A program made the position numbers and the translations under genes. From Spirochaetales bacterium (GTDB taxonomy: Bacteria; Spirochaetota; Spirochaetia; JABEVK01), in contig JBAXAI010000002.1 of NCBI GenBank assembly GCA_037142615.1, positions 32,001-96,000 on the forward strand: a stretch of 64,000 nt of DNA, in the 5' to 3' direction. Under the pieces are notes generated by a model that worked only from the letters and a program-made list of their open reading frames with translations, was not told the DNA's origin and searched no databases. Below, piece by piece: positions 2,945 through 63,540 of this stretch (position 1 is its first letter; each line of letters begins with the position of its first letter).

Positions 2945-3959
2945 GGTCATTGGGACGGCGGCCGACGGGCCCCGTGGATTCACGGACGACCAGCTCTGGT
3001 GCGATGGTCACTTCACGTTCCTGGGGTTCCTTCGACTCGAGCAGGTCCTGCAGTACCGAAGTGGTTCGCAGGCCCAATTCCCCGATCGACTGGCTTACCG
3101 TGGACAGCGCGGGCCCCAAGAACGTCACAACGTCGATGTCGTCAAACCCGATGATCGAGACATCGGCAGGAACTCGAAGTCCATGTTCGAATGCGCAGCG
3201 CACGGCACCGATTGCCAGCTCGTCCGTGACTGCGAACACGGCGCTGTGGTCTCGACCACTATTGAGCAGGGCCTCCATACCCAGACGTCCAGCCTCCATA
3301 GAGTAGGACTTCATTCGCACCACATCGGCCGCGTCCAGGGTCACGCCCTGAGAGGCCAGTGCTTCCTCAAATCCTTGATGTCGAAGCCTGTCAAAACCGA
3401 AACCTGGGCCTCCGAGCAAAGCTGCACGCTGGTGCCCGAGTGCTACCAGGTGCCTCGCCGCCAGCGCAGCGCCCCGAACGTCATCGACGCTCACCGAGGC
3501 CAGGCCCACGTCGGGGAGCCGGAACGTGCACAGCACTGTGGGAAGTCGACGGCCCTGCAGGTACCTGTAGAAGGCGGGATGTGTCACCTCGTGGATGCAG
3601 ATCACACCGTCCAGTCTCTCAGCCTTCAAGCGCGGCAAGAAACTTGGTTCCCCTGTCGCCCCCCAAGCCTCAAAGAAGAAGTCCGTGCGGTACCCCAGGT
3701 GTTCCAGGTGGTGTTCGATGTGTGCGAACAGTTGCCGCTGGAACATGTTGAAGGCTTCTGGGATGACAATCCCGATGGTGAACGTCCGTTGTTGGGCCAT
3801 GCTTCGGGCCGCCCGGTTGGGCACGAAGCCAAGCGAATCGATAATGGTCAAAATGCGATCGCGCAGTTCAGGCGCGACCCGGGCGCTACCCGTCAGGACC
3901 CGAGAAACTGTCGATTTCGAGGTACCAGCAAGTCTGGCAATGTCGATGATGCTCACCAT
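2922..3959 (-). CDS. LacI-family transcriptional regulator (probable inositol repressor)
   Basis: [23 protein letters not shown]; C-terminal [12 protein letters not shown]...LSTV. Start moved to ATG 3959. The 3' end overlaps the iolD 3' end. Confidence 0.9.
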
Positions 3960-3997
3960 AGCTCGTTCTAGCATAGAGACGATACAAGGAGGAATCA

Positions 3998-4894
3998 ATG
4001 TTGAACAAGAATAGAGTCAGGCTCGGAATCGCTCCCATCGGCTGGACCAACGATGACCTGCCCGAACTCGGAGGCGCCAACACTTTTGAGCAATGCGTCA
4101 GCGAGATGGCGCTAGCGGGATTTTCCGGCAGCGAGGTCGGAAACAAGTACCCGCGAGATCCAGCTGTACTGAACAAGGCATTGGGTCTCAGAGGACTGAC
4201 GATTTGCAACGCCTGGTTCAGCAGTTACCTGACCACAAAGACACTCAAGGAGAACATCGGGGCGTTTCTCGAGCATCGAGACTTTCTGCACGCCGTAGGT
4301 GCCAGGGTCATCGGTGCCTCGGAGCAGGGACACAGCATTCAGGGGCAAATTGAGACTCCGATTCTCGGCCGCAAGCCGGTCTTCACAGACGACGAGTGGA
4401 AAAGGTTGGCCGACGGACTTGACGAACTGGGGAGTCTGGCTGCCGACAAGGGTATGATCCTGACCTACCATCACCATATGGGTACAGGGGTGCAGACTGT
4501 CGAGGAAATCGACCGCCTCATGTCTTCAACGGATGCGTCGAAGCTCTCCCTCTTGTTCGATTCAGGACACCTGACTTTTGCCGGAATCGACCCCGCTGAG
4601 GTTCTCAGAAAGTACATCCACCGTGTTCGCCACGTTCATCTCAAAGATGTCCGAACCGATGTTCTTAAACGGGTGAAGAAGGAGAACTGGAGCTTCCTGA
4701 GGGCCGTCAGGGAAGGGGTCTTCACGGTTCCTGGCGACGGTTCTGTCGACTACTTGCCGATTCTCAAGGTTCTGGAGACCACAGAGTACAACGGGTGGAT
4801 TGTCGTCGAGGCAGAGCAAGACCCAGCGATCGCTAACCCGCTGGAATACGCAATCAAGGCCAGGAAGTTCCTAAGGGAAACTACGGGCCTCTAG
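3998..4894 (+). CDS. iolE: myo-inosose-2 dehydratase
   Basis: [44 protein letters not shown]; RBS AAGGAGG. Confidence 0.95.
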
Positions 4895-4971
4895 TGGTCT
4901 GCCGGTGAGGAGAGGAGGAAGACCCTCGGCCACCAGCCCACAACGATCGAATGGGAAAAGAGGAACCAACC

Positions 4972-6575: not shown

Positions 6576-7778
6576 GTGAATCACATTGCGCTGTTAACTG
6601 CTTTCCTTGTCCTGTTTCTTCTGGATTCTCCAACGGCCGCCCAAGCCACCAAGGCTCCTGTAACCGTCGAGATCTACTACAGCGACGACTGCAACCACTG
6701 TAACGAAGCGCGGCGAGTCCTCGAGCAATTGGCACGCCAGGATTCGACGATCCACGTTCTTGAGTTCGAGGTCTGGAACGACGAAAAGAACCTGGCGCGC
6801 CTGGTTGCCAAGGCGGCTGTTTTCGGCTACACGCCGGACGCACTGCCGAACATTTTTGTGGGAAGCAAGTACTGGGTCGGCTATTCCGCTACCGTTGATA
6901 GGGAAGTTCGAGCGGCTCTTGGCGCCGAACCGGTTCGGGACCAAACTCAGCCTCCGCCGGTTTCCGCCCCGGCATCCGGCGGACCAGTCGCGGATCTTGA
7001 GTCAAAATCCTCCCCGAGCGACCAAGGCGTGGTACTGAACTTCCCCATAATTGGCGCGATTGACCTACGGGGTCAGTCGCTGCTGATCGCGACGCTGATC
7101 ATAGGCTTCGTTGACGGTATCAATCCCTGCAGCCTGTGGGTCCTCTCGATGCTGCTGACGCTGACGCTCCATACGGGATCTCGGCTCAGAGTCTTCTTGA
7201 TCGGCGCGCTTTTTATCCTGGCAACATCAATTGTCTATGCCGCTTTCATCACAGGCATGTTCGCCCTCACGACACTCGTAACTCTCAATGGATGGATGAG
7301 CGGCCTGGTCATTGCGACCGCAGGAGTATTTGGGTTAGTCAATATCAAGGATTATTTTTGGTACAAGAAAGGTCCGTCACTTAGTATACCTGACAAGTCC
7401 AAGCCGAAGATCTTCGAGCGCATCCGGGGCCTGATGGTACAAGATGTTTCGCTGTGGGCTTTGATCATCGGAACAGTTGTCCTCGCGGTTGGAGTTTCGT
7501 TTGTGGAACTGGGTTGCACAGCAGGACTCCCGATGCTCTGGACCCAGTTGCTCACCGAGTCACACGTCGACCCCGCAACGTATGCTTGGTTGCTTTTTGC
7601 TTACATGCTTGTCTATCAGGTGATTCCTATGGTGCTGTTTGTCGCAGCAGTCTGGTCGCTCCGCGCCAGCCGTATTGGAGAGCGCCACGGCCGAATGCTG
7701 AAGCTCATAACCGGTGTCATGATGCTACTTCTCGCGGCCGGCATCCTCGGCCAGTTGCTGAGCCACGGCGGGGTCTGA
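6576..7778 (+). CDS. Thioredoxin/glutaredoxin-like domain fused to a CcdA/DsbD-like membrane domain
   Basis: Signal peptide, CNHC redox motif, then multiple TM helices with DGINPCSLWVL and VELGCTAGLP cysteines. Confidence 0.75.
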   Translation: MNHIALLTAFLVLFLLDSPTAAQATKAPVTVEIYYSDDCNHCNEARRVLEQLARQDSTIHVLEFEVWNDEKNLARLVAKAAVFGYTPDALPNIFVGSKYWVGYSATVDREVRAALGAEPVRDQTQPPPVSAPASGGPVADLESKSSPSDQGVVLNFPIIGAIDLRGQSLLIATLIIGFVDGINPCSLWVLSMLLTLTLHTGSRLRVFLIGALFILATSIVYAAFITGMFALTTLVTLNGWMSGLVIATAGVFGLVNIKDYFWYKKGPSLSIPDKSKPKIFERIRGLMVQDVSLWALIIGTVVLAVGVSFVELGCTAGLPMLWTQLLTESHVDPATYAWLLFAYMLVYQVIPMVLFVAAVWSLRASRIGERHGRMLKLITGVMMLLLAAGILGQLLSHGGV

Positions 7779-7780
7779 AA

Positions 7781-10153
7781 ATGCCCAATCCGACACGATC
7801 GAACGAGGACACTTTGTGGTACACGCGCCCCGCTCAATTGTGGACAGAGGCGCTCCCGATCGGAAACGGGCGACTCGGGGGAATGGTATTTGGAGGGGTC
7901 GCTGAGGACCTCCTTCAGTTGAACGAAGACACTCTTTGGTCAGGCTATCCCGACGGTTGGACTAACGCCGAGGCGTTGGGGGTACTACCTGAGGTGCGGC
8001 AGTGCCTTCTGGATGGAAGAATCGGGCGGGCGCAAGAACTCGTCGAACGCCACATGGCGGGCAAATGGTCACAATCCTATCTGCCGCTAGGTGACCTCCG
8101 TGTCCGGCTACACGGGGTGGAGTCCTTCTCGGCCTATCGAAGGGAACTTCGATTGGATGAAGCTGCAGTGCTCAGTGAGTTTAGGACAAGCCAAGGCACC
8201 GTCAGCAGAAAGACCTTCGCTTCCTTTGCCCATGATGTCATTGTCTACGAAGTCGAAAGTGAGTTTCCAATGGATGCCAGCGTCATCCTCGGCAGTCAAC
8301 TGAGGTCGTCGATTTCCGGCGCCGGGAATGTGATTACGCTCTGGGGAGTGGCACCAGGTTGGGTCGCTCCTCACGACAAGGTGTATGAAAACCCCATCGT
8401 CTACGGAGAGGGCCCCGAGACCTCGGGAATGCGATTCTGTGCGATGGTGGCTGGCACGGCCGACTCGGAGCGGATGGATACCGACCAACTGGCACTCTGG
8501 TTTCGCGGTTTCACAAGACTTAGGCTTGTCTTGTCCGCAGCGACAAGTTTCCGAGATCGCGACAGCCATCCTTTTGTCAATGGACTCGATGAGCTGGCCC
8601 TGGCAAGGAGTAAACTTGACCGTGCGATGGGCGTGCCGGGAAACGAGCACCGAGAGAGCCACAGGCAACGCTACCAACTCCAGTACCAGAGGGTAGAGCT
8701 CGAAGTCGACTCGCCTACCGAAAAGCGGTTGCTGCCGACGGATCAACGGCTTCTGGAATCCAACCCAACCGCTGATCCGGCGCTGGCCGTCCTCGCGTTC
8801 AACTTCGGTCGCTACTTGATGATCTCTTGTTCTCAGCCGGGCTCCCAAGCGGCAAACCTGCAAGGCATTTGGAACAAGGACCTCCGGCCTTACTGGTGCT
8901 GCAACTACACGACCAACATCAACACCGAGATGAATTATTGGGGTGTTGAGATCGGCAACCTATCAGAGTGTCACGAGCCTCTGTTTGATCTGGTGAAGTC
9001 TGCGTCCCAGCACGGCGTACGAGTCGCGCGGGACCACTATGGAGCTCGCGGCTGGGTGGCCCACCACAATCTGGACATCTGGGCGAGTTGCGTTCCGGCC
9101 GGCTACGAGGGCCACGTGGACAAGGGCGCCGCTTGCTACGCGTTCTGGCCCATGGGAGGAGTGTGGCTGACGCGTCATCTTTGGGAGCACTTTCTTTTCA
9201 CAAGGGACAAAGCCTTCTTGGCCCTGGATGCCTGGCCCGTCATGAAGGAGTGCGCGAAGTTCTGCTTGGATTGGTTGATTTCCGACAAGGACGGATACCT
9301 CGTTACGGTGCCGGCGACTTCACCGGAGAACGGCTACTATTTGGAGACCGGTGCCCACTTCGCAATCGATGCTGGCACGACCTCAGACACCGAGAGCATT
9401 CGGGATCTGTTTCAGAATTGTCTGAGCGCTATTCTGGTGCTCGGTAACGATGAGGTCATTGCCGATGACCTTCGGAGGGCTTTAGGCCGCCTTCGCCCGC
9501 TGCGAATTGATGCCAAGGGCACGCTGGCCGAGTGGTCCCAGGACTTCCAACCTGCCGATCCCGGACATCGTCACCTTTCGCATCTTTACCCCTTGTTTCC
9601 GGCGACTTATGCCCAAGGATCAGGTGACAAGGAAGTGCTTGATGCCTGCAGAGCAACTCTCGCTTCCCGGTTGCAGCACGGAGGTGGGGGGACGGGGTGG
9701 TCACTCATTTGGCTTGTCTGCTGCTTCGCACGGCTTGGTGATCAACGTGCTGCGGAAACGGAACTGTACCGATGGGTGAGACACTCTACTTACCCCAACC
9801 TTCTTGATCTTCATCCCCCTCTTTCCGAGCGTGAGACCGACGCCTTCCAGATAGACGGAAACCTTGGGGTCGTCGCAGCAATTGGTGAGATGTTGCTCCA
9901 GAGTCACCTTGGGGTGATTCACCTTCTCCCTTGTCTGCCGACCGTTTGGAAAAATGGCTCATTTCATGGACTTCGTGCCCGAGGCGGTTTTGAGATCTCA
10001 GTCTCCTGGCACGATGGAGAGCTGGAAACAGCCACCATTTCAAGTTCTTTCGCGACGAGCATTGAGGTCCGTTATCGGTCAACGACTGTCAATCTGACTT
10101 TTGAGCGCCCGGGAGTACACCGGCTCGGAAGTGGGTTCTGGAGCCGACCCTAA
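7781..10153 (+). CDS. GH95 alpha-L-fucosidase-like hydrolase
   Basis: WTEALPIGNGRLGGMVFG, LQLNEDTLWSG, ANLQGIWN, YTTNINTEMNYW, HRHLSHLY, FQIDGNLG. Start moved to ATG 7781. Confidence 0.92.
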   Translation: MPNPTRSNEDTLWYTRPAQLWTEALPIGNGRLGGMVFGGVAEDLLQLNEDTLWSGYPDGWTNAEALGVLPEVRQCLLDGRIGRAQELVERHMAGKWSQSYLPLGDLRVRLHGVESFSAYRRELRLDEAAVLSEFRTSQGTVSRKTFASFAHDVIVYEVESEFPMDASVILGSQLRSSISGAGNVITLWGVAPGWVAPHDKVYENPIVYGEGPETSGMRFCAMVAGTADSERMDTDQLALWFRGFTRLRLVLSAATSFRDRDSHPFVNGLDELALARSKLDRAMGVPGNEHRESHRQRYQLQYQRVELEVDSPTEKRLLPTDQRLLESNPTADPALAVLAFNFGRYLMISCSQPGSQAANLQGIWNKDLRPYWCCNYTTNINTEMNYWGVEIGNLSECHEPLFDLVKSASQHGVRVARDHYGARGWVAHHNLDIWASCVPAGYEGHVDKGAACYAFWPMGGVWLTRHLWEHFLFTRDKAFLALDAWPVMKECAKFCLDWLISDKDGYLVTVPATSPENGYYLETGAHFAIDAGTTSDTESIRDLFQNCLSAILVLGNDEVIADDLRRALGRLRPLRIDAKGTLAEWSQDFQPADPGHRHLSHLYPLFPATYAQGSGDKEVLDACRATLASRLQHGGGGTGWSLIWLVCCFARLGDQRAAETELYRWVRHSTYPNLLDLHPPLSERETDAFQIDGNLGVVAAIGEMLLQSHLGVIHLLPCLPTVWKNGSFHGLRARGGFEISVSWHDGELETATISSSFATSIEVRYRSTTVNLTFERPGVHRLGSGFWSRP

Positions 10154-10275
10154 TGAATGTTGAGACGGAACACTTTTGTGGAGCGGAGTTCTAGCCGGAT
10201 GGGATCTCGGTGTTTCTTGACGTGTGAAACGAGATTATTCGCGACGCCCAGCAGTAGGCGGAGGAGGAGTAGACT

Positions 10276-12378
10276 ATGAACCAAGAATACGAGCCCGGCG
10301 AATTCGTCGATGTTTCTATTGTCACCGGCCGGCCGGGAAGAACCGATGGGAAGAATACCGATCGGTCGGCCAACCTGGTTTTGCCGGACGTCCTGAGCAA
10401 ACTGCCGGTGGGACAGGTCCTCCCTCTTGGATGGCTGAAGGAGTGTGTGGAGAGGCTCCGCACTGGGCTTGCCGGGCATCTGGGGCAGATTAGCGCCTGG
10501 CTGCAAAAGTCGAACAACGCGTGGCTTGACCCTTTGGGAACCGGTGAGTTCGGCTGGGAAGAAGTGCCCTACTGGTTGAAAGGTTACGCCCACATCGGGT
10601 ACCTCACCGGCGATCCAAAAATACTCCAGGAGGTCGGGGTTTGGTTCGACAGAGTCCTGGAGTATCAACGTGATGACGGGGACTTCGGACCAATTCACTA
10701 CGAAGAGGGTGGCGAAAAAAGAGACTATTGGGGCAACATGATCATGTTGACTTGCTTGAGTTCCTGGTACGAGTACACCGGCGACGCTCGGGTCATCCCT
10801 TTCTTTCAGCGCTACTTCAAATATCAGTTGAACTGCTCCGACGGCGAACTCCTGGCAGGATATTGGCAGAGGTTGAGAGGTGGCGACAACCTCAAGAGCG
10901 TCATCTGGCTCTATAGGCTGACGGGCGAAAACTGGCTGGTTGATCTCGCCGAGAAGATCCACCGTGTTACCGCCGACTGGACTCGTCGAGACTACGATCT
11001 TTCTGAGATTCGGGGGGTGAAAGCGAGTCGGGATGGATCATTTCCTCAGTGGTTCTTTTCGTTGCCCGATTGGCATAATGTCAATATTGCCCAGGGTTTC
11101 AGGGAACCGGCACAGTACTATCAGGTCTCTCGGGACAGAAAGCATCTTGCGGCAAGTTACGAAGTCTTTGAAATCGTTCACAGCCATTTTGGGGGCGTCC
11201 CGGGAGGGATGTTTGCAGGGGACGAGAACTGTCGGGTTGGCTATTCTGATCCTCGGCAGGCCGTCGAGACGTGCGGGATTGTGGAGCAGATGAACTCCGA
11301 TCAGCACATGTTCCGGATTACGGGCGATCCCAAGTGGGCCGACCACTGCGAAGAGGTCGCACTCAACAGTCTTCCAGCAACCATGATGCCCGACTTTCGG
11401 TCCCTCCGATACCTTACGGCTCCCAATCTCGTCACGGGTGACAGTCGGAATCACCATCCCGGTATCGCCAATGATGGGCCCTTCCTCTTGATGAATCCTT
11501 TCAGTTCACGGTGCTGCCAACACAATCACGCTCAAGGTTGGACCTACCTCGCAGAGAACTCGTGGATGAGGACTGACGATGATGGCTATTGCATGGCTTT
11601 CCCCTTCCCCTGTGAGGTCAATACGACCGACGGCTCAGGGCATCCTCTGAGAATCGAAGTGGAAACTCGTTACCCCTTTGAAGAGACTGTTCAGATTCGG
11701 GTCCATTCGACAGCGAGTTCCTCGATTCCTCTTTACCTGCGAGTTCCCGACTGGTGTAGCGAAGCTAAGGTATCCGTCAACGGTTACCAGGTTAAGGTCA
11801 AAGCCCTACCTGGCGCATACCTCCGTCTGGTAAGAACCTGGGTAACAGGCGATCTTGTGACCTTAACTCTTCCGATGTCGCTTCGCTGGGTCCAATTTGA
11901 GAGACTTGGACCCGCCGCGAGCCTGTACTATGGGCCCACAGCGTTCTCACTCGGCATCCGGCAAGAGGTGCTTGAACGGAACAGTATCGAAACCGCCATC
12001 TTCGACTCGAAATGGCAAGCGTCAGTGGATGGCAGTGCTTGGCCTTCGTACGAACTTCTGCCGGCTTCGGCGTGGAACTTTGGCCTGCCGGTGTCAGCTC
12101 AGTCAGAACTGGGCAAGATGGTGCTTCGGCGGCGGCCCTGGCCAAAAGACAACTTCCCGTTCGAGTTCGGGTCTACACCACTGACGCTCCAACTGGAGGG
12201 TGTCCGCCTTCCTACCTGGACCCTCGATGAGTACGGACTATGCGGGGAGCTCTCCTCGATCGACCGGGAGCAACTGGGTGTCCTTGAAGAACTGGAACTC
12301 ATACCTATGGGAGCTGCCAGACTCAGAGTTTCCGTCTTTCCTGTTGTTGGTGGGAGCAACGAGCAAGATTCATTCTAG
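10276..12378 (+). CDS. GH127/GH146-type beta-L-arabinofuranosidase-like protein
   Basis: GWEEVPYWL, ETCGIVE, CCQHN (Zn/Cys motifs), LYLRVPDW, LIPMGAARLRVSVFP; RBS GGAGGAGG. Confidence 0.85.
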   Translation: MNQEYEPGEFVDVSIVTGRPGRTDGKNTDRSANLVLPDVLSKLPVGQVLPLGWLKECVERLRTGLAGHLGQISAWLQKSNNAWLDPLGTGEFGWEEVPYWLKGYAHIGYLTGDPKILQEVGVWFDRVLEYQRDDGDFGPIHYEEGGEKRDYWGNMIMLTCLSSWYEYTGDARVIPFFQRYFKYQLNCSDGELLAGYWQRLRGGDNLKSVIWLYRLTGENWLVDLAEKIHRVTADWTRRDYDLSEIRGVKASRDGSFPQWFFSLPDWHNVNIAQGFREPAQYYQVSRDRKHLAASYEVFEIVHSHFGGVPGGMFAGDENCRVGYSDPRQAVETCGIVEQMNSDQHMFRITGDPKWADHCEEVALNSLPATMMPDFRSLRYLTAPNLVTGDSRNHHPGIANDGPFLLMNPFSSRCCQHNHAQGWTYLAENSWMRTDDDGYCMAFPFPCEVNTTDGSGHPLRIEVETRYPFEETVQIRVHSTASSSIPLYLRVPDWCSEAKVSVNGYQVKVKALPGAYLRLVRTWVTGDLVTLTLPMSLRWVQFERLGPAASLYYGPTAFSLGIRQEVLERNSIETAIFDSKWQASVDGSAWPSYELLPASAWNFGLPVSAQSELGKMVLRRRPWPKDNFPFEFGSTPLTLQLEGVRLPTWTLDEYGLCGELSSIDREQLGVLEELELIPMGAARLRVSVFPVVGGSNEQDSF

Positions 12379-54635: not shown

Positions 54636-56203
54636 TCGGGCTTCCCTCCCTGTTTCATCGGGGCACGCGGCGGGGGGATGCGCATCGGATCGGGTACCAC
54701 CGTGGAGCGACTGCCGAACAGGTTGGCCCGCTTGGGAATGCCGGTGGTGGGGGTACAGCCTTCGCCGTCGCTGAAACCGCAGCCGCCCTTGAGGTCGTAG
54801 GCGTTTTCGGCGTATTCGCGGTGGGTGGTGGGGATGACAAACCGGTCCTCGTAGTTGGCCAGCGCCAGGATCCGGTACATCTCGCCGGCCTGGGCCTCGG
54901 TCAGCCCCGCCGCTTCGAGAACCTTGGGCACGTTCTGCTTGTTGACGCTCTTGAGGCGCATCCATGCCCGCATCGAAAGCAGGCGTTCGAGCGCCAGCTT
55001 GATGGGAGCCTCATCGCCGGCCGTGAGCAGGTTGGCCAAGTACTGCAAGGGAATGCGCAGCTGGCTCACGTCGGGAATCGCGCCGTTCATGCCGATGTCG
55101 CCGGCCTGGGCTGCCCCCTGAATGGGCGACAGCGGCGGCACGTACCAAACCATGGGCAAGGTGCGGTACTCGGGGTGCAGCGGGAAGGCGATCTTCCACT
55201 CCATGGCCATTTTGTACACCGGTGAGTTCTGGGCCGAGTCGATCCAGTTCTGGGCGATTCCGTCGGCCAAGGCCTGGGCCTGCACCTTGGGGTCGTGTGG
55301 GTCCAGGAAAATATCGAGCTGGCTCTGATACAGGTCGGTCTCTTTTTCAACGCTGGCGGCTTCCTGAATCTTGTCGGCGTCGTAGAGCAAAACCCCGAGG
55401 TAGCGGATGCGTCCCACGCAGGTTTCACTGCAAACGGTGGGCAGGCCGCTTTCGATGCGCGGGTAGCAGAACAGGCACTTCTCGGCTTTGCCCAGAGCCC
55501 AGTTGTAGTAGATCTTCTTGTACGGGCAGGCCGTGACGCACATGCGCCAGCCACGGCACTTGTCCTGGTCGATGAGCACGATGCCGTCTTCTTCGCGCTT
55601 GTAGATCGAGCCCGAGGGGCAGGCGGCCACGCAGGCGGGGTTGAGGCAGTGTTCGCACAACCGTGGCAGGTACATCATGAAAGTCTGTTCAAACTGGCCG
55701 TAGATGTCTTTCTGAACCTTGTCGAAGTTCTGGTCCTGGCTGCGCTTGGAAAACTCGCCGCCCAGGATTTCTTCCCAGTTGGGGCCGCCGACGATCTTTT
55801 CCATGCGCTCGCCGGTGAGGGCGCTCACGGGGCGTGCGGTCGGTGGATGTTGCATTTCGGGGGCACTTTGCAGGTGAGCGTAGTCAAAGTCAAAGGGCTC
55901 GTAGTAGTCGTCGATTTGCGGCAAGTGCGGGTTGGCAAAGATCTTCGACAACAGCAGAGGTCTGTCCCCCATGCGCGGCACGAGCTTGCCCTTGCGGTTT
56001 TTCATCCAGCCGCCCTTCCACTTTTCCTGGTTTTCCCAGTCCTTGGGGTAGCCGATGCCGGGTTTGGTCTCGACGTTGTTGAACCAGGCGTATTCCATCC
56101 CGGGGCGGTTGGTCCACACCTGCTTGCAGGTCACCGAGCAGGTATGGCAACCGATGCACTTGTCCAGGTTGAGGACCATGCCGATTTGTGCGCGGATCTT
56201 CAT
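54632..56203 (-). CDS. narH: Respiratory nitrate reductase beta subunit (Fe-S)
   Basis: MKIRAQIGMVLNLDKCIGCHTCSVTCK, CEHCLNPAC, CRGWRMC, HPEYRTLPMVWYVPPLSP. Confidence 0.97.
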   Translation of the reverse strand: MKIRAQIGMVLNLDKCIGCHTCSVTCKQVWTNRPGMEYAWFNNVETKPGIGYPKDWENQEKWKGGWMKNRKGKLVPRMGDRPLLLSKIFANPHLPQIDDYYEPFDFDYAHLQSAPEMQHPPTARPVSALTGERMEKIVGGPNWEEILGGEFSKRSQDQNFDKVQKDIYGQFEQTFMMYLPRLCEHCLNPACVAACPSGSIYKREEDGIVLIDQDKCRGWRMCVTACPYKKIYYNWALGKAEKCLFCYPRIESGLPTVCSETCVGRIRYLGVLLYDADKIQEAASVEKETDLYQSQLDIFLDPHDPKVQAQALADGIAQNWIDSAQNSPVYKMAMEWKIAFPLHPEYRTLPMVWYVPPLSPIQGAAQAGDIGMNGAIPDVSQLRIPLQYLANLLTAGDEAPIKLALERLLSMRAWMRLKSVNKQNVPKVLEAAGLTEAQAGEMYRILALANYEDRFVIPTTHREYAENAYDLKGGCGFSDGEGCTPTTGIPKRANLFGSRSTVVPDPMRIPPPRAPMKQGGKPE

Positions 56204-59200
56204 ACTTGGGCTCCTTTTTTGGCCGGGGCAGTGCCCCGGGCTAGGGGCTCGTCCATCCAGTCCACCTTGTCCATTTTGCGCACCAAGACGAACTCGTCGC
56301 GGTTGGTGCCGATGGTTCCGTAGTAGTTGAACCCATAGCTCTGTTGGGCGTAGCCACCGATCATGTGGGTGGGTTTGAGCACAATGCGCGTGACGCTGTT
56401 GTGAATGCCGCCGCGGGTGCCGGTGATGGCGTTTCCGGGCGTGTTCACGATCTTTTCCTGAGCGTGGTACATCATGCACATGCCCTCGTTGACCCGCTGG
56501 CTCACCACCGCCCGGGCACTGATGGCCCCGTTGACGTTGAACAGTTCGATCCAGTCGTTGTCGACGATGCCGGCCTTCCGGGCGTCGGTCTCGCTGATCC
56601 ACACGCAGGGCCCGCCGCGGCTGAGGGTCAGCATCAGCAGGTTGTCGGTGTAGGTGGAGTGGATGCCCCACTTCTGGTGCGGCGTGATGAAGTTCAAGGC
56701 GATCTCTTTGTGGCCGTTGGGTTTAGCCCCCAACATTTGGGCCACCGTCTTGAGGTCAACCGGCGGACGGTAGGCGCACAGGCCCTCGCCAAAATCGAGC
56801 ATCCACGGGTGGTCCTGGTAGAACTGCTGGCGGCCTGTGAGCGTTCGCCACGGAATCAGTTCGTGCACGTTGGTGTAGCCGGCGTTGTAGCTCACGTGCT
56901 CGCTCTCGATGCCGCTCCACGTGGGGCTGCTGATAATCTTTCGCGGTTGGGCCACCAGGTCGCGGAAGCGGAGCTTCTCGTCCTGCTTGGCGCGTGCCAG
57001 GTGCGCGTGTTCGCGGCCGGTGAGCTTGCTCAGGGCTTCCCAAGCCTTGACCGCCACCTCACCGTTGGTTTCGGGCGCCAGGCTCAGAATCACTTCCGAG
57101 GCGTCGATGTCGGTCTCGATGCGCGGGCGGCCCTTGGACACGCCTTCGTCGGTGACCAGGCGGTTGAGCTCACCCAGAAAGTGGACTTCGTCTTCTGTGT
57201 TCCAGCCGATTCCCTTGCCGCCGTTGCCCAGCTTTTCCAGCAGGGGCCCGACCGAGGTGAACTTCTTGTACACGTTGGGGTAGTCACGTTCTACCACCGT
57301 GATGCTCGGAGCGGTCTTGCCGGGGATCAGCTCGACTTCGCCCTTCTTCCAGTCCTTGACCCCCAACGCTTGCGCCAGTTCGGCAGGCGTGTCGTGCATC
57401 AGCGGGTTCATCACGACGTCTTTTTCCACGCCAAGGTGGCCGGGAGCCATGGCGCTGAAGGCCTTGGCGATGCCTTTGTAGATGTCCCAGTCGGAGCGGC
57501 TTTCCCAGTTCGGGTCGACCGCGGCGGTGAGCGGGTGGATGAAGGGGTGCATGTCGCTGGTGTTGAGGTCGTTCTTTTCGTACCAGGTGGCCGTGGGAAG
57601 CACGATGTCGCTGTAAAGGCAGGTGGTGCTCATGCGGAAGTCGAGGGTGACCAGCAGGTCGAGTTTGCCTTGGGGGGCCTCGGCGTGCCATTTGACTTCG
57701 TGTGGGTGTAGCCCTTCCGAGCCCAAATCCTTGCCCTGCACGCCGTTTTTCGTGCCCAGCAGGTGCTTGAGGAAGTACTCGTGGCCCTTGCCCGAGGAAC
57801 CGAGCAGGTTGGAGCGCCACACGAACAGCACGCGGGGGAAGTTGGCCGGGTCGTCCGGGTCTTCGCAGCTGAGTTGCAGCGAACCGTCCTTGAGACCGTT
57901 CACCACGTAGTCCTTGGGCTCAATACCGGCTTTGGCAGCAGCCTTGGCTACTTCGAGCGGGTTGGTCTTGAGCTGAGGTGCGGACGGCAACCAGCCCATG
58001 CGCTCGGACTTCACGTTGTAGTCGATGAAGCTCTGTTCCTTGCCGGAACCAGCGGCCACCAGCGGCGAGCGGATTTCCTCGACGCCCAGCTTTTCGTAAC
58101 GCCACTGGTCGGTGTGGGCGTAGAAGAAGCTGGTGGAGTTCTGCTGGCGGGGAGGGCGGCTCCAGTCGGTGGCAAAGGCCAAGGGCAACCAGCCCGTCTG
58201 CGGACGGAGTTTTTCTTGCCCCACGTAATGCGCCCAACCACCGCCGGACTGCCCCACGCAACCGCAGAGCATCAGCAGGTTCATGATGCCGCGGTAGTTC
58301 ATATCGCTGTGGTACCAGTGGTTCATGGCCGCGCCGATGATCACCATCGACTTGCCGTGGGTGTCGTGGGCATTCTGGGCAAACTCACGGGCCAGTGTGA
58401 GGGCCTGGTGTGCGGGTACCCCGGTGATTTTTTCCTGCCAGGCCGGGGTATAGGGCACATCGTCCTCGTAGTTCTTGGCCACCGAACCACCCAGGCCGCG
58501 GTCGACGCCGTAGTGGGCCGTCATCAGGTCGAACACGGTGGCGACCTTGGTTTCGCCCTCGAGGGTCTTCAGGGTCTTGACGGGAATGTTGCGTACCAAC
58601 ACGTCGCCGCCCTGGTCGTTGGCGGTAAAGGCGTCGGGGGCTGTTCCAGCAAAATAGGGGAAGGCCGCCGGGACCACCTCATCGCGACGGGTGAGCAAGC
58701 TGAGCGCCAAGGTTACCTCGCTGCCAGTCTTGCCGTCTTTTTGTTCCAGGTTCCACTTGCCGGCGTCCTCGCCGGGTTTCTGGTTCCAACGGAAGCCGAT
58801 CGAACCGTTGGGTACGGTCAAAGTGTCCCCGGTTTCGTCCCACGCCACGGTCTTCCAGTCGGGGTTGTTGGCCTGCCCCAGTCCGGCGTCAAAATCACTG
58901 GCGCGCAGGTAGCGGTCGGGCACCCAGGCCTTGCGCCCCCGGTCGAAGCGGAGTTTGACCAGCAGGGGCAAGTCGGTGGTCTTGCGGGCGTAATCGGTGA
59001 AGTAGTCCGAAGGTTCTTCGACGAAGAACTCCTTGAGCACAACGTGGCCCAAGGCCATGGCAAGCGCGGCGTCGGTGCCCTGTTGGGGATGAAGCCACAC
59101 GTCGGCCAGCTTGGCCACTTCGGAATAGTCGGGGGTGATGGCCACCGCCTTGGCGCCCTTGTAGCGCACTTCGGTGAAAAAGTGGGCATCCGGCGTGCGG

Positions 59201-59979
59201 GTTTGAGGCACGTTGCTTCCCCACGCAATGATATAGGTGGAGTTGTACCAGTCGGCGCTCTCGGGCACGTCGGTCTGCTCGCCCCACACCTGCGGGCTCG
59301 CGGGGGGCAGGTCGCAGTACCAGTCGTAAAAGCTCATGCACACGCCGCCAATCAGGCTCAGGTAGCGGCTGCCGGCAGCGTAGCTCACCATGCTCATGGC
59401 GGGAATCGGGCTGAAGCCAATGATGCGGTCGGGGCCGTAGTTCTGGATGGTGCCGATGTTGCTGGCAGCGATGATCTCGTTCACTTCGGCCCAGGTGGAG
59501 CGCACGAAGCCACCCAACCCGCGGCGTTGCTGGTAATCACTGCGGCGTGAGGAATCGGCCTGCAGGGCCTTCCAGGCGGCCACCGGTTCCATCGTGGCGC
59601 GAAGTTCTCGCCAGTGTTTGAGCAGGCGGCCGCGCACCAGCGGGTGCTTGAGCCGGTTGGCGCTGTACATGTACCAGCTGTAGCTCGCTCCCCGGGCGCA
59701 ACCGCGGGGTTCGTGGTTGGGCAAATCCGGGCGGGTACGGGGGTAGTCGGTCTGTTGGGTTTCCCAGGTGACGATGCCGCCCTTGACGTAGATCTTCCAG
59801 CTGCAACTGCCGGTGCAGTTCACCCCGTGGGTGGAGCGGACGATTTTGTCGTGCTGCCAGCGACTGCGGTAGCGTTCTTCCCACGTGCGGTCTTCCTGCA
59901 CGACGTTGCCGTGCTTGCCCGAGAAGGCCTCTTTCGGTTTGAGGAAAAAGCTCAGGCGATCGAGAAACGGTTGCGACAT
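56200..59979 (-). CDS. narG: Respiratory nitrate reductase alpha subunit (cytoplasm-facing, no Tat signal)
   Basis: RSTHGVNCTGSCSW, HEPRGCARG, DWYCDLPPASPQ, TPHQKWGIHST. Start ATG 59979. Confidence 0.97.
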   Translation of the reverse strand: MSQPFLDRLSFFLKPKEAFSGKHGNVVQEDRTWEERYRSRWQHDKIVRSTHGVNCTGSCSWKIYVKGGIVTWETQQTDYPRTRPDLPNHEPRGCARGASYSWYMYSANRLKHPLVRGRLLKHWRELRATMEPVAAWKALQADSSRRSDYQQRRGLGGFVRSTWAEVNEIIAASNIGTIQNYGPDRIIGFSPIPAMSMVSYAAGSRYLSLIGGVCMSFYDWYCDLPPASPQVWGEQTDVPESADWYNSTYIIAWGSNVPQTRTPDAHFFTEVRYKGAKAVAITPDYSEVAKLADVWLHPQQGTDAALAMALGHVVLKEFFVEEPSDYFTDYARKTTDLPLLVKLRFDRGRKAWVPDRYLRASDFDAGLGQANNPDWKTVAWDETGDTLTVPNGSIGFRWNQKPGEDAGKWNLEQKDGKTGSEVTLALSLLTRRDEVVPAAFPYFAGTAPDAFTANDQGGDVLVRNIPVKTLKTLEGETKVATVFDLMTAHYGVDRGLGGSVAKNYEDDVPYTPAWQEKITGVPAHQALTLAREFAQNAHDTHGKSMVIIGAAMNHWYHSDMNYRGIMNLLMLCGCVGQSGGGWAHYVGQEKLRPQTGWLPLAFATDWSRPPRQQNSTSFFYAHTDQWRYEKLGVEEIRSPLVAAGSGKEQSFIDYNVKSERMGWLPSAPQLKTNPLEVAKAAAKAGIEPKDYVVNGLKDGSLQLSCEDPDDPANFPRVLFVWRSNLLGSSGKGHEYFLKHLLGTKNGVQGKDLGSEGLHPHEVKWHAEAPQGKLDLLVTLDFRMSTTCLYSDIVLPTATWYEKNDLNTSDMHPFIHPLTAAVDPNWESRSDWDIYKGIAKAFSAMAPGHLGVEKDVVMNPLMHDTPAELAQALGVKDWKKGEVELIPGKTAPSITVVERDYPNVYKKFTSVGPLLEKLGNGGKGIGWNTEDEVHFLGELNRLVTDEGVSKGRPRIETDIDASEVILSLAPETNGEVAVKAWEALSKLTGREHAHLARAKQDEKLRFRDLVAQPRKIISSPTWSGIESEHVSYNAGYTNVHELIPWRTLTGRQQFYQDHPWMLDFGEGLCAYRPPVDLKTVAQMLGAKPNGHKEIALNFITPHQKWGIHSTYTDNLLMLTLSRGGPCVWISETDARKAGIVDNDWIELFNVNGAISARAVVSQRVNEGMCMMYHAQEKIVNTPGNAITGTRGGIHNSVTRIVLKPTHMIGGYAQQSYGFNYYGTIGTNRDEFVLVRKMDKVDWMDEPLARGTAPAKKGAQV

Positions 59980-60033
59980 CGGCAAGCCCCCTTAATGCAC
60001 ATGAACTGAGTTTGGGGGGTGCGAGGCCGGACT

Positions 60034-60112: not shown

Positions 60113-61858
60113 CTAACCCAGTGGCATCTCGATCGGGTTGGCCTTTTTGTTGGCAAGCCAGTCCCCGTTCTCGGCGAGGGCTTCCTTGCCCAAGGCAAAC
60201 AAAAGCCCCTCGACCGTGGCCCCGTTCGTGCCAGCCGCCAGGATCTTCTTTTTTCCAAGACCAAACAGGCGGGCCATCCGGCGGTACTGCCGTTCTTCCT
60301 CTTCCTTCCCGGTCACCTCGGCAAAGGTAGCCAGCGCCGTACCGATACCCAGCAGCGTGTCGAAGGCGAACATCAGCCAGGGGAAGGCGAGCTTTTCCTT
60401 GATCTCAGACAGGTTCTGCCAATCCAATTCCGGGTTCTCGAGCACCTGGAAGATTTGCAAACCCACGACCCCCACAAGCGCCGCCAGCGAGAGGACAAAG
60501 AGGGTGCCGGTTCGCAAGCGCTGTCGGCTCTGCTGCTTTTCGCGGGTCTCGCTGGTGCGTCCGAAGTACTTCTCCTGATCGGCGACCCAGGCTTTCGTGG
60601 CGATTTCGAGACCTTCCTTCGTCACCCCCGAAAGGGCTTCGTTTTCGGCCTCGAGGTCGACGGCACGGAGCGCCATCAGGATCCAGGCCATGCTGCCCCG
60701 GTATTTCTGCAGGTAGTGGTCTCCCACGTGCTCCCCAACCCCGGCGATGCGCCAGTACAACTGAACCCGCAGGCCTTCGGCCAGGGCTCGGCAGTCCACG
60801 TAGTCGTTATCCCAACCCCTCCGGTTGGCGATCAACGTGACCAAAAGCCCAAAGGCGAGAAGGCCGAGGGCCAAAGCGAGAGTTCCCGTAAAAGGGGCCA
60901 GTTCGACAAACAACGACAGGAGAGAGAACGCCGAGGCCGCCATGACGAAGAGCAGGATCAAGGTTTTTACAACCCGCTTTTGCAGCCGCTGGGCCAGCAC
61001 GTCGGCCACCGCAGCCCAATGCAGCACCGACTTCGTTCCGGCGTTGAGGGTTTCTGCGGTCTTCTCGTCCAGCAGGTAGCTCTTGGTGAGCTTGAGGGCC
61101 GCCTGGTCCAGACTTGCAGCCGAAAGCCGGTTGAAGTGATCCAGCGACGACAAGCCCTGCATAAAGACGTCGCCCAGCCTTTCTTCCTTGTCTTGCGACC
61201 ACGACTGGGGGAGCAATACCGAGTAATCTTGGCCTTCGTCAGGGCAGTAGCAGGCAATTTCGCGCTGACCGGGTTGGAGCGTTTCAGGGTCATGCGACAC
61301 CCTCGCCGCGAACAGATGAAAAACCGTCCCGAAGTCGGGGGTTTCCAGTGGGCTGTGCTTTCCTCCGAACTCTGCGGGAACACCGTTGAGCTTGAACTCG
61401 ACGCACTGGGCGGTTCCCCCCGGCTCGTGGTGGTTCTTCCCGTTCCATAACGCAACCAGCAGGTGGGTGTGCTCGGCGAGGTACCGGGCCAGTTGAAGGT
61501 AACGGTGGTCAGGCTGCGCTGAAACCGGCAACTCAACCACCAGTTTGGCTCGCGACAGCAGGCGTTGGAAGGTCTCGAGGCTGAGCCCTGAAAAGTCTTT
61601 TTCATAGTCGGCCACCGGCACCGGCAAGACCGCGACCAGTTCGAAGCCCAGATCCAGGGCTACCTCGGCCACCAGACGGTCGGCCCCTTCGGCCAGGCCC
61701 GAGAGCAAGCGGAAAGGGCTCGATGGGAACTTGGAACGGAGTTCACTCAGCGTCCGGCGGACCTGCTGCGTGAGCTGCACGAGGTCTTGGGGTCTCAAAT
61801 CCCGGTGGCCGGTGACTCCCAAGGTAATGGGGAGGCCTGAATGGGTGGGTGGCGTCAT
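60113..61858 (-). CDS. SLOG-domain protein with two SLATT/DUF4231-like 2TM modules (predicted nucleotide-gated membrane effector)
   Basis: SLOG motifs LGVTGHR, SGLAEGAD, LVALWNG, GGTAQCV; C-terminal TM pairs with W...RALAEGLR, WVADQEKYF, YRRM and ENGDW motifs. Confidence 0.75.
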   Translation of the reverse strand: MTPPTHSGLPITLGVTGHRDLRPQDLVQLTQQVRRTLSELRSKFPSSPFRLLSGLAEGADRLVAEVALDLGFELVAVLPVPVADYEKDFSGLSLETFQRLLSRAKLVVELPVSAQPDHRYLQLARYLAEHTHLLVALWNGKNHHEPGGTAQCVEFKLNGVPAEFGGKHSPLETPDFGTVFHLFAARVSHDPETLQPGQREIACYCPDEGQDYSVLLPQSWSQDKEERLGDVFMQGLSSLDHFNRLSAASLDQAALKLTKSYLLDEKTAETLNAGTKSVLHWAAVADVLAQRLQKRVVKTLILLFVMAASAFSLLSLFVELAPFTGTLALALGLLAFGLLVTLIANRRGWDNDYVDCRALAEGLRVQLYWRIAGVGEHVGDHYLQKYRGSMAWILMALRAVDLEAENEALSGVTKEGLEIATKAWVADQEKYFGRTSETREKQQSRQRLRTGTLFVLSLAALVGVVGLQIFQVLENPELDWQNLSEIKEKLAFPWLMFAFDTLLGIGTALATFAEVTGKEEEERQYRRMARLFGLGKKKILAAGTNGATVEGLLFALGKEALAENGDWLANKKANPIEMPLG

Positions 61859-61880
61859 AGTTTCCTCACTGGCAACCAGT

Positions 61881-63419
61881 CTACTTCATTTTCGAGACGA
61901 TTTTGCGTACCCCTTCCTCGAAGTACTCGTGGCGTAGATGCACGCCGTCAAAGCGAAGGGCCTGGTGGATTTCGGGCGGCAAGGAATCGCTCGCGGGTTG
62001 CACAAAGTCGGGCTTGAACACGGGAATGATGTTCATCTTGGTGCGGATGGCCTCGCGGATTTCGTTGGCAACCCAGTCGTCGGCTTGCTGGCACCGGTCC
62101 AGCGCACCGGCAGAGAGCAGAAGAACGAAGTTTTTCGAACTTCGGATGCTCCCCATGATCTGGTCGTCAAACGCTCCGGCCTGCATGGACTTCACGTCGA
62201 GGAACACGTTTTTGCCTTCGCCGGCCAGCCTCGCGTACAGCGCCCAGACCGCGTCGGCGCCCCCGTTTCTGCGGTAGCTGATAAAGGCATCCAGCGGACC
62301 TGTCTTGGCAACCATTTTCAGCGGCGAGCCGTAGAGCTCGGCCATGCCTTGCAGAACCTCGGCGCGCCCGAGCACGGTGCCTGCCCGGGGCGAGTCCACA
62401 ATCGTGAAGTCGTGCCCGCGCCCGTCGTACCAAGGGTCCTCGTTGTCGCAATACCCGTCGTAGCGGGGCGAGCCGCCGCGCTGCTGCCCCAGTTCGGCTC
62501 GTTTCTGGGTTTCGCGCCGCTCGAGCTCGTACCCCAACTGCGGCAGGTGGTAGGCACCCGACGGATCGACCGAAATCACAAAGCGGTAGGGTTGCCCGTC
62601 TTTCTCGTAGGGGTACACCAAAACAGCCTGATCGGGCAGGGTTTCCCTCACCCAATACTTGGCGAGCACGCTGCGCGGCTGCCGCGAAAAGGCGAACGCC
62701 TTGACCTTCTCTGAAAGAGCATCTCGTTTGGGCAGAAAGAGTTCCAGCGTGGTCGAGTCGAGTTTGTCGCCTTCAAAGAGGGCTTGATCGGCCATGAGGC
62801 GGTCGGCGACCTCCTGGAAGTCTGCCGTAGGCTCGCAGGGCTCCAGAAAGTCGGCAGCCGTCAAGTTGCGGCCCCGAGTCTCGATGATCTGCGCGACCAG
62901 GTTTCGGCCCTGAATCAGGCACTGCTCGTGGCCGCGAAGTGTATTCATCAGCATGAGGTACAAAAGGAAGGGGCGAACGGGTTTGCCTTCGACACGGGCC
63001 AGGCCCTGGTCGATGCGGTTGGTGGCCTCAACCAGCGCCCGCGTAACACCGTCGTCGGGCAGGCGGCCGTTTTGCAGCAGATAATCGACCAGGTAGTACC
63101 CACACACCCCATCCCAGTCGGGCGCCTGGTGCGTCGTGAACTGGAACTTCAGCTCGCTGCCCTCGAGCTTGCCTCCCGAGTAGTAGGTTCGGTTGAGCGG
63201 CGCCAGCAGGTGGTCGAGCACGAACTGCGGATTGCGGGCAATGGCCTCGGTCGAGCTCTCGGGCCCATCCAAAAGGTGATGGTGGTCCAAAATGCCGGGC
63301 TCAAGCCGGTTGCCCACATCGACAAACACGCGCCCGGGCTCGGGCGACACCGTCGAACCGTGGCCTAGGAACTCGTACCTCCATTGACGGGAGACGCCCA
63401 AATCGATCGTACCTAACAT
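61881..63419 (-). CDS. Permuted DHH-like phosphoesterase domain fused to a C-terminal SARM1-like TIR domain
   Basis: ATG 63419 after AAGGAG (512 aa). N-terminal VDVGN, LDHHH, THQAPDWDG; C-terminal DAFISYRR...VFLD...FVLLLS...DWVANEI with a Glu at the TIR catalytic position. Confidence 0.8.
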   Translation of the reverse strand: MLGTIDLGVSRQWRYEFLGHGSTVSPEPGRVFVDVGNRLEPGILDHHHLLDGPESSTEAIARNPQFVLDHLLAPLNRTYYSGGKLEGSELKFQFTTHQAPDWDGVCGYYLVDYLLQNGRLPDDGVTRALVEATNRIDQGLARVEGKPVRPFLLYLMLMNTLRGHEQCLIQGRNLVAQIIETRGRNLTAADFLEPCEPTADFQEVADRLMADQALFEGDKLDSTTLELFLPKRDALSEKVKAFAFSRQPRSVLAKYWVRETLPDQAVLVYPYEKDGQPYRFVISVDPSGAYHLPQLGYELERRETQKRAELGQQRGGSPRYDGYCDNEDPWYDGRGHDFTIVDSPRAGTVLGRAEVLQGMAELYGSPLKMVAKTGPLDAFISYRRNGGADAVWALYARLAGEGKNVFLDVKSMQAGAFDDQIMGSIRSSKNFVLLLSAGALDRCQQADDWVANEIREAIRTKMNIIPVFKPDFVQPASDSLPPEIHQALRFDGVHLRHEYFEEGVRKIVSKMK

Positions 63420-63540
63420 TGGTTGCTCCTTGCGTGGTCCAAACGTTCCATTAGTATTGTTCCGAGGGTGCCCTGGGTGCAAGGTGGGGCGGGAACAAAG
63501 AAGTCGTTCGACAGAGGACTCGTCATGGAGTTTCTCTGCC

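Follow-up and report, generated by a model that had tools for sequence, protein, structure and literature searches.

What does a bacterial protein do with a TIR domain like that of the animal enzyme SARM1, and does the likeness bear on the origin of SARM1? The question was raised by gene A, which lies on the reverse strand of a 64,000-nucleotide stretch of Spirochaetales bacterium DNA (assembly GCA_037142615.1, contig JBAXAI010000002.1, positions 32,001 to 96,000; hereafter the window). Protein A consists of an N-terminal domain (N-domain) and a C-terminal TIR domain, and its gene is followed on the same strand by gene B, which encodes a predicted SLOG-SLATT membrane protein. Because a SARM1-like TIR gene sits here beside a predicted nucleotide-sensing membrane protein, the pair is probably a Thoeris-type anti-phage system. 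With confidence a little above even, we propose that the two genes make up a Thoeris-like module for nucleotide signalling, its likeliest purpose being abortive-infection defence; A would be the sensor and signal generator and B the receptor and effector.

Gene A was best read from the ATG at position 63419, which gives 512 amino acids and places the start of residue 377 at 62291. The mechanical list of open reading frames (ORFs) begins the gene at TTG 63482; this 533-residue reading was dropped because the ATG has a good Shine-Dalgarno sequence and agrees with the N-termini of the family. An AlphaFold2 model of the whole protein from an 82-row alignment had a mean predicted local distance difference test score (pLDDT) of 93.8 and a predicted template modelling score (pTM) of 0.88, and no hydrophobic segment was found in the hydropathy plot of protein A. 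Of 8000 candidates scored from a collection of 5.8 billion proteins, ten were full-length relatives (42-57% identity), besides an identical record. One full-length locus (L001, in a metagenome-assembled genome (MAG) of KSB1) was found in 185,579 species genomes, and nothing but a 100%-identical fragment of 2.3 kb and two relatives of the N-domain came from a metagenome scan for contexts of the family.

The earlier note, made from the sequence alone, had described a TIR domain at residues 377-512 with the motifs of SARM1 in the same order over the whole domain. Every motif that it quoted was reproduced in the phmmer alignment of the two proteins, which was colinear across the entire domain (for example, DAFISYRRNGG opposite DVFISYRRNSG). 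The Pfam family TIR_2 (PF13676) matched protein A with 40.5 bits, above its cut-off of 28 (residues 400-506 in the 533-residue reading). When protein A was searched with phmmer against all PDB chain sequences, 19 distinct sequences were found at E<=1, of which 19 were SARM1 or Caenorhabditis elegans TIR-1, the best with E 1.5e-26, 96 bits and about 40% identity; no other TIR reached that threshold. BLASTP against full-length SARM1 of Bos mutus (P0188), in which SAM_2, SAM_1 and TIR_2 were found by domain scan, gave 41% identity over 171 columns (E 4e-33). With a profile of the A family, SARM1 was matched in the PDB at 7.7e-34, while the next entries were 4lzp (3.7e-3), TLR15 (5.7e-3) and AbTir (8.4e-3).

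As the earlier note had stated, E453 of protein A falls at the position of SARM1 E642 (numbering of the 512-residue protein and of PDB chain 7knq). In the same alignment Y382, R383 and R384 paired with SARM1 Y568, R569 and R570, and D408, G415, W449 and H497 with D594, G601, W638 and H685. According to the titles of PDB entries, E642, G601 and H685 of SARM1 are sites that were mutated by the depositors. In protein A, E453, W449, Y382, R383, R384, D408 and G415 were invariant in all 11 family members, and H497 was histidine in nine of the 11 and tyrosine in P0010 and P0012.

The structural comparison also set SARM1 apart from other TIRs. Foldseek superposed the TIR part of the model on crystal structures of the human SARM1 TIR with template modelling scores of 0.85-0.90 (normalised by the target), root-mean-square deviations (rmsd) of 2.0-2.4 Å and 39-40% identity. 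With VIA-align, 22 SARM1 and TIR-1 entries scored Z 21.5-16.2, and superposition on SARM1 and TIR-1 (best Z 21.5) gave rmsd values of 1.6-2.0 Å over 137-138 residues; the best TIR other than these was that of the interleukin-18 receptor beta (Z 15.7), and AbTir scored Z 13.6. The SARM1 structures were probably in the training data of the predictor; the sequence evidence stands apart from that. The resemblance of the A TIR to SARM1 is far beyond chance, and no other characterised TIR comes as close to this domain in sequence and structure as SARM1 does.

How special this likeness is was evaluated from the side of the other TIRs. In an exhaustive search with residues 374-512 of protein A, 8050 cluster representatives scored E<=1e-3; the threshold of E<=1e-10 was reached by 3751 and that of E<=1e-30 by 10. 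Among the 150 matches listed, bovine SARM1 stood at about rank 147 (45% identity, 100.8 bits), and SARM1 was not among the 299 candidates scored in a word-based homologue search with the TIR region. The other listed matches that were scanned (48 of the 150) were bacterial-looking multidomain proteins, in which the TIR was joined to Sel1, LRR/DUF285, FGE-sulfatase, kinase, WD40 or PEGA domains or to further TIRs. In the reverse direction, with the SARM1 TIR as the query against 192 collected TIR domains, the window TIR ranked 82nd with 104.6 bits, and several bacterial TIRs scored higher (115-130 bits). The likeness to SARM1 is thus a trait of a very large, mostly bacterial TIR clade and is not particular to gene A.

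Two trees were constructed, both quick ones on about 140 columns, with many forks unresolved and no ThsB, AbTir or TcpC among their rows. The first had 75 rows (every fifth of the other TIR matches, plus TIRs near B genes) and 142 columns. It put the window family, SARM1 and the sampled top matches in one clade of 50 rows with a Shimodaira-Hasegawa-like approximate likelihood ratio test value (SH-aLRT) of 97, and 25 other TIRs, from loci near SLOG-SLATT genes, fell outside that clade. The alignment and phylogeny with SARM1 that the earlier note had proposed therefore kept the window TIR in the SARM1-like clade to which the note had assigned it, in agreement with the PDB matches, the gap in Z scores and the family profile. 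SARM1 was sister to the window family in this tree (SH-aLRT 85). When all 192 domains were included, SARM1 and a 362-residue protein, P0183, joined the bacterial protein P0127 (SH-aLRT 95), and the window family formed a separate clade of 16 rows (SH-aLRT 98). The sister relation was dropped and is not claimed here, because it is absent from the 192-domain tree. Gene A is a new but average member of a known clade and is not the nearest bacterial relative of SARM1.

A bearing on the origin of the SARM1 TIR, which had also been suggested in the earlier note, was borne out to a small extent at most. According to the accessible text of PMC13142454, which cites Zhang et al. 2011, published trees already place SARM1 within a mainly bacterial clade and explain its origin by horizontal transfer, so gene A adds little, and in the 192-domain tree P0127 is the closer bacterial protein. 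In the same group of TIRs, a locus in a MAG labelled UBP7 (L033, 3156-11532, plus strand) contained five tandem paralogues of 489-569 amino acids, each with a C-terminal SARM1-like TIR.

The predicted function of gene B was derived from several matches that agree with each other. Hydropathy analysis of protein B gave hydrophobic segments at residues 295-323, 320-346, 448-474 and 495-513, and the first hairpin coincided with matches to SLATT_3 (18.8 bits, cut-off 26.3) and DUF4231 (24.2 bits, cut-off 24.7) in Pfam at residues 285-371. The NCBIfam SLATT_3 model scored 27.6 bits against a cut-off of 45 (E 2.4e-6). At residues 30-84 the SLOG-clan families YAcAr and DNA_processg_A reached 17.6 bits (cut-off 28.2) and 16.6 bits (cut-off 29.6), respectively, and the PADLOC model ShosA matched at 4e-5. 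Among 38 aligned relatives of B (E<=0.01), DUF4231 was detected in 16, SLATT_3 in 15, YAcAr in 14 and SLATT_1 in eight. Within the conserved loops of the family, A56, G58, A59 and D60 were invariant, and T16, G17, H18, D20 and E57 were conserved in at least 90%. Neighbours of B in the ESM Atlas carried SLATT families, and no PDB sequence was matched by the B-family profile at E<=1. The family is large, with at least 999 matches, mostly full-length and of 28-36% identity, and 437 confirmed stretches in the species genomes.

The two genes are arranged as an operon. The ATG of gene B lies 22 nucleotides past the stop codon of gene A, and each gene has its own Shine-Dalgarno sequence. Outside the window, too, genes of the B family were statistically linked to TIR genes. 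A hidden Markov model (HMM) of SARM1-like TIRs detected a TIR ORF within 5 kb in 25 of 80 fetched B loci, and TIR_2 was found by Pfam in the same-strand upstream neighbour in eight of the 65 B loci in which a same-strand upstream ORF was present. Starting from the SARM1-like TIRs, a B homologue adjoined the TIR gene in three of 26 loci. These came from three phyla (L005, Phycisphaeraceae; L012, Lentimicrobiaceae; L021, Solibacteraceae), and their TIR proteins had other architectures than A, those of L005 and L012 being TIR-FGE-sulfatase fusions. The B family is tied to TIR genes, as a family. HMM matches to the 'N-domain' in B loci were discarded, as all of them lay in TIR columns carried over from full-length rows, and a DHH-like neighbour was found in none of the 80 B loci. 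The whole genome of the window had one TIR_2 match.

Other arrangements of B-family genes were also observed. In L130 (1051-4977, plus strand) a 1309-residue DUF4062-NACHT-TPR protein is encoded directly upstream of the B-family gene; DUF4062 is reported, in the literature text accessible to us, as a TIR-like NADase. In L089 (1683-3575, plus strand) a protein with TPR-S and adenylate/guanylate cyclase domains occupies the same place, a hint that a cyclase, and not a TIR, is what certain SLOG-SLATT proteins respond to. In many loci of Woeseiaceae and other Gammaproteobacteria (L126, L129, L136, L139, L141, L143 and others) the B-family gene is flanked on both sides (about 2370-4900 and 6720-8950), upstream by a gene for a protein of about 820-860 residues with no Pfam match and downstream, after 4 nucleotides, by an ORF of about 535-740 residues; this looks like a conserved three-gene unit.

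The layout of A and B was compared with that of known TIR systems. The accessible text of a preprint (bioRxiv 10.64898/2025.12.03.692087) describes operons of TIR and SLATT genes as type VII Thoeris, the signal of which is canonical cyclic ADP-ribose (cADPR), made only upon infection, and states that cADPR in the medium arrests cells bearing this system. It also describes the SLOG domain of type I Thoeris as the receptor of 3'cADPR, and type III Thoeris as several TIRs with a SLOG effector. Judged by its predicted domains, the A-B pair has the general Thoeris layout, in which the TIR gene shares an operon with the gene of an effector that bears a predicted ligand-sensing domain. Going by the description of that system, the pair would work most like type VII (ThsB TIR and SLATT effector ThsH), in which a TIR gene adjoins a SLATT-type membrane effector, as is predicted here. 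The product reported for type VII is one that SARM1 makes, its major products being ADP-ribose (ADPR) and cADPR according to the accessible part of 10.64898/2026.04.20.719644. Differing from type VII, protein B adds a predicted N-terminal SLOG domain and has four predicted membrane helices, and protein A adds the 372-residue N-domain.

Type I (ThsB and the SIR2-SLOG protein ThsA) pairs a TIR with a SLOG-bearing effector, as is predicted for A-B, whereas no SIR2 match was found in B or in the neighbours read, and the output of B is a predicted membrane module. Type III would share the TIR and SLOG logic but has several TIRs where A-B has one TIR gene. With no SIR2 present, and with the NCBIfam equivalog ThcB4 at 37.9 bits on A against a cut-off of 220, the pair belongs neither to type I nor to type III. 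The PADLOC model for ThsB matched A weakly (29 bits), and the SAVED_TIR match of PADLOC covered the TIR part alone. The earlier view of this TIR as SARM1-like rather than of ThsB type is consequently right for the sequence; for the role it fails, because a SLOG-SLATT partner is what a Thoeris-like signal generator would have. With SARM1 and TIR-1, protein A has in common a colinear TIR with the catalytic glutamate, the FISYRR, WxxxE and HEY motifs and the BB-loop glycine. It is not a SARM1 orthologue, since no ARM or SAM domain was matched and a DHH-like partner is found at the N-terminus instead, and its gene neighbour suggests a signalling role over pure depletion of nicotinamide adenine dinucleotide (NAD+).

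On the favoured reading, A would be kept inactive through its N-domain until a trigger (a cue from the phage, or a small nucleotide at the putative metal site) acted on that domain. The SARM1-like TIR domains would then associate and cleave NAD+ at E453 to nicotinamide and ADP-ribose-type products. By analogy with SARM1 and type VII Thoeris, canonical cADPR or one of its close derivatives would be the likeliest signal. The SLOG domain of B would bind this product, and the SLATT hairpins would assemble in the membrane and breach it, so that the cell stops before the phage can multiply, with the loss of NAD+ adding to the arrest. Such a mechanism does not require A and B to touch each other. The N-domain might gate the TIR as ARM gates SARM1, edit the product, or end the signal.

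The N-domain (residues 1-372) had no match when scanned against Pfam, and DHH (PF01368) was not matched at E<=1. When 55 relatives of the domain were scanned singly, a DHH match at E<=1 was obtained in 36, the best at 1e-5. A model of the N-domain alone, from the 55-row alignment, had a pLDDT of 95 and a pTM of 0.91. Compared with 48,161 PDB representatives, its top 21 rows all belonged to the DHH superfamily (Z 10.8-6.6; matches cover model residues 2-368): the DHH domain of PF0399 (Z 10.8, 245 residues aligned), PggH (Z 10.2), RecJ-Cdc45 (Z 9.4), PAP phosphatase (Z 9.2), NrN (9lq9, Z 7.5) and GdpP (Z 6.6), with RecJ, TM1595, NrnA and Cdc45 likewise among them. Foldseek matched 2qb6, 5cet and 4ls9, and structural neighbours in the ESM Atlas included DHH/DHHA1 clusters, some of them viral. 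From the models, the N-domain is a divergent DHH/DHHA1 domain.

The motifs of the N-domain are D34, D45-H46-H47, H97xxPD101xD103, D137-Q-G and DPWYDGRGH (328-336). In the 55 sequences G36, D45, H97, E303 and P329-W-Y-D-G333 were invariant, D34, H47, P100, D101, D103, D137, G139, R334 and H336 were conserved in at least 90%, and H46 was absent from the conserved columns. Judged from these residues, the domain probably binds metal. We take HxxPDxD to resemble motif I of DHH proteins, the DHH stretch to resemble motif III, and GRGH to stand for the GGGH of DHHA1. The DxG...DHH stretch comes ahead of HxxPDxD, which is an unusual order for the DHH family. The N-domain shares with the DHH/DHHA1 phosphoesterases (NrnA, PggH, GdpP, RecJ, NrN and PPX1) the two-lobe fold (Z 7-10.8), the DHH triad and HxxPDxD; it differs from them in its motif order, the missing Pfam DHH match and the fusion to a TIR.

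With D34, D45, H47, H97, D101, D103, D137 and H336 so well conserved, and with a fold matching DHH enzymes that cut pGpG, pAp, nanoRNA, cyclic di-AMP, polyphosphate and pyrophosphate, a variant of the favoured mechanism was considered in which the domain is a working phosphoesterase on the TIR product. It would either turn this product into the SLOG ligand, for instance through cutting the pyrophosphate or a phosphate of ADPR or cADPR, or destroy it as an off-switch. NrN, which is among the structural matches, is the DHH enzyme degrading the S-adenosylmethionine-AMP signal of CorA-type type III CRISPR systems. Relatives of the N-domain, however, mostly have no TIR nearby and adjoin STAND- or BrxC-like ATPases, and for this reason a general sensor or effector module fits better than an enzyme for TIR products; we regard the phosphoesterase variant as quite improbable.

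The contexts of the N-domain were surveyed further. The domain alone is more widespread than gene A, with 42 stretches at E<1e-15 in the species-genome scan. It occurs as a standalone protein of about 380-430 amino acids, with a C-terminal extension of 330-450 residues, after a protein kinase (P0024) and before a different TIR (P0025). In the four extensions checked (P0014, P0015, P0021 and P0026) the end consisted of one or two hydrophobic segments. The tail of P0026 has a hydrophobic pair after the stretch LFMPLGITASFFSG, which may resemble the GMN region of CorA. Among 68 same-strand neighbours of 43 N-domain ORFs, an AAA_16 (STAND-like) protein of 1100-1470 amino acids adjoined the N-domain ORF in seven loci (L048, L049, L061, L065, L069, L070 and L076), and an 850-residue protein with a BrxC helical domain did so in four (L051, L053, L059 and L063). 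In L054 a TIR-FGE-sulfatase gene comes after the N-domain ORF and an ORF with SLOG alone lies beyond it, and in one locus a kinase-FGE-sulfatase protein precedes the N-domain ORF. These contexts suggest that the DHH-like domain recurs as a component in several conflict systems that are unrelated to each other.

A bolder interpretation, which we hold to be unlikely, would see in the DHH-like domain a previously undescribed module, for input or as an enzyme, of conflict systems in prokaryotes, standing alone next to STAND- or BrxC-like ATPases or in fusion with a TIR, a two-helix membrane tail or a kinase. In protein A it would be a catalyst acting on a nucleotide, either sensing and consuming a trigger nucleotide so as to fire the SARM1-type TIR, or reshaping the ADPR or cADPR made by the TIR into a new messenger read by SLOG. 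In the text accessible to our literature searches for DHH with TIR or with SLOG/SLATT, no fusion of DHH to TIR was found, though the supplementary tables of both bioRxiv preprints may carry one; the term DHH is absent from the main text of the type VII Thoeris preprint as far as that text was available. The searched text likewise gave no case of a four-helix SLATT-type effector with an attached SLOG beside a SARM1-clade TIR.

Several observations weigh against the two-gene reading. All SLOG and SLATT matches of the window protein B lie under the curated cut-offs. By the SARM1-like TIR model, 55 of the 80 B loci were without a TIR, and the genome of the window has a second B paralogue (585 amino acids, 52% identity) on contig C21 with no TIR there. 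No B gene occurs in the 9.9 kb covered for L001, the sole further full-length relative of A whose context was seen; therefore the pairing was seen in one of two contexts of the A family. Finally, the flanking genes are metabolic (narG and a pyridoxal phosphate decarboxylase), with no obvious defence island. On contig C21 (L087, plus strand), the paralogue gene (9576-11333) is preceded by a gene for a 569-residue B-like protein with a degenerate-looking SLOG part (7856-9565) and, further upstream, by genes for an AAA_14/DUF4143 ATPase, an alpha/beta hydrolase and an AAA protein.

An A without B in L001, the B paralogues without a TIR and the lack of DHH-like neighbours in B loci would all suit a self-contained sensor-effector NADase, with B independent or merely co-located. 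The DHH-like domain would bind a nucleotide, perhaps hydrolysing it slowly, and switch on a TIR that drains NAD+ and kills or arrests the cell, as in SARM1, TIR-SAVED, TIR-STING and CARF-TIR Cat1. The latter three likewise fuse a ligand-binding or regulatory domain to a catalytic TIR, although the partner in A is of the predicted DHH/DHHA1 fold and not SAVED, STING or CARF, and NAD+ depletion by Cat1 is published (PMC12162218, accessible text). The modular N-domain, with two-helix membrane tails, a kinase or a different TIR as alternative outputs, is also consistent with this model. It leaves the tight spacing of A and B and the link of the B family to TIR genes without explanation, however; no signal-making cyclase gene stands beside A, and in the N-domain the putative metal-site residues show the conservation of an enzyme and not just of a binding pocket. 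We consider the self-contained model somewhat unlikely.

The surroundings of the pair bear on whether it serves defence at all. The guanine-plus-cytosine (GC) content is 0.60-0.63 across 52-63.5 kb of the window, without an island-like break, and mobile-element genes were not seen beside the pair in the regions read. A small probability was kept for a role outside defence because the flanks are not island-like and no GC break was found. The pair would then belong to housekeeping or stress physiology, such as NAD+- or nucleotide-controlled membrane permeability or dormancy, or the TIR would be a non-catalytic scaffold. Against this stand the invariant catalytic residues of the TIR, the related architectures, all of which are typical parts of conflict systems (FGE-sulfatase, Sel1, LRR, STAND and BrxC-like), and the rare and patchy distribution of the A family across phyla, the usual pattern of defence genes. 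A non-defence role thus appears highly improbable.

About 1.2 kb past the window end, on the same contig (L168, 1750-3285, plus strand), a 511-residue protein is encoded that has a C-terminal FGE-sulfatase domain and a 270-residue N-terminus without assignment. FGE-sulfatase domains like this one are fused to SARM1-like TIRs beside B homologues in L005, L012 and L054. A GNAT gene also lies just beyond the window end. The scan for promoters and terminators gave no signal above the shuffled expectation. The positions of the features in the window are listed in Table 1.

Table 1. Features of the A-B locus and its downstream neighbour, in window positions
Feature	Position	Strand	Basis
Gene A, 512-residue protein with predicted DHH/DHHA1-like N-domain and SARM1-like TIR	61881..63419	-	ORF and translation
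Stop codon of gene A	61881-61883	-	sequence
Shine-Dalgarno AAGGAG, 6 nucleotides before the gene A ATG	63426..63431	-	sequence reading
N-domain of A, residues 1-372, predicted divergent DHH/DHHA1 phosphoesterase fold	62304..63419	-	model, structural search, conserved columns
TIR domain of A, residues 377-512, SARM1-like	61884..62291	-	Pfam, phmmer, structure, profile, BLASTP
E453 codon, opposite the SARM1 catalytic Glu642	62061..62063	-	alignment; invariant in 11/11 full-length family members
Gene B, 581-residue predicted SLOG and SLATT membrane protein	60113..61858	-	ORF; weak Pfam, NCBIfam and PADLOC matches; family-wide matches
Shine-Dalgarno GAGGA of gene B	61863-61867	-	sequence
Predicted SLOG-like nucleotide-binding domain of B, about residues 1-200, loops GVTGHRD and SGLAEGAD	61259..61858	-	sub-cut-off matches, conserved loops
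Predicted membrane part of B with two hairpins (four hydrophobic helices in all), about residues 285-520	60299..61006	-	hydropathy, SLATT_3/DUF4231 matches
narG-like respiratory nitrate reductase alpha subunit, 1261 residues, immediately downstream of B	56200-59985	-	translation only

The SARM1-like character of this TIR alone is not news, as the mostly bacterial clade holding SARM1 was already published. The locus is a compact, testable case of a SARM1-clade TIR wired to a predicted SLOG-SLATT membrane effector, and it links the type of enzyme that makes cADPR in animal axons with the cADPR-based bacterial immunity reported in 2025. More original than the TIR is the rare DHH-like N-domain. 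Were this domain to gate the TIR or to edit what the TIR makes, TIR signalling would gain a new regulatory or chemical step, and the domain would be a bacterial counterpart to the metabolite-sensing ARM domain of SARM1. Should the bolder interpretation of the domain prove true, the locus would hold a bacterial signal factory of two enzymes, with its TIR drawn from the clade that also supplied animals with that of SARM1.

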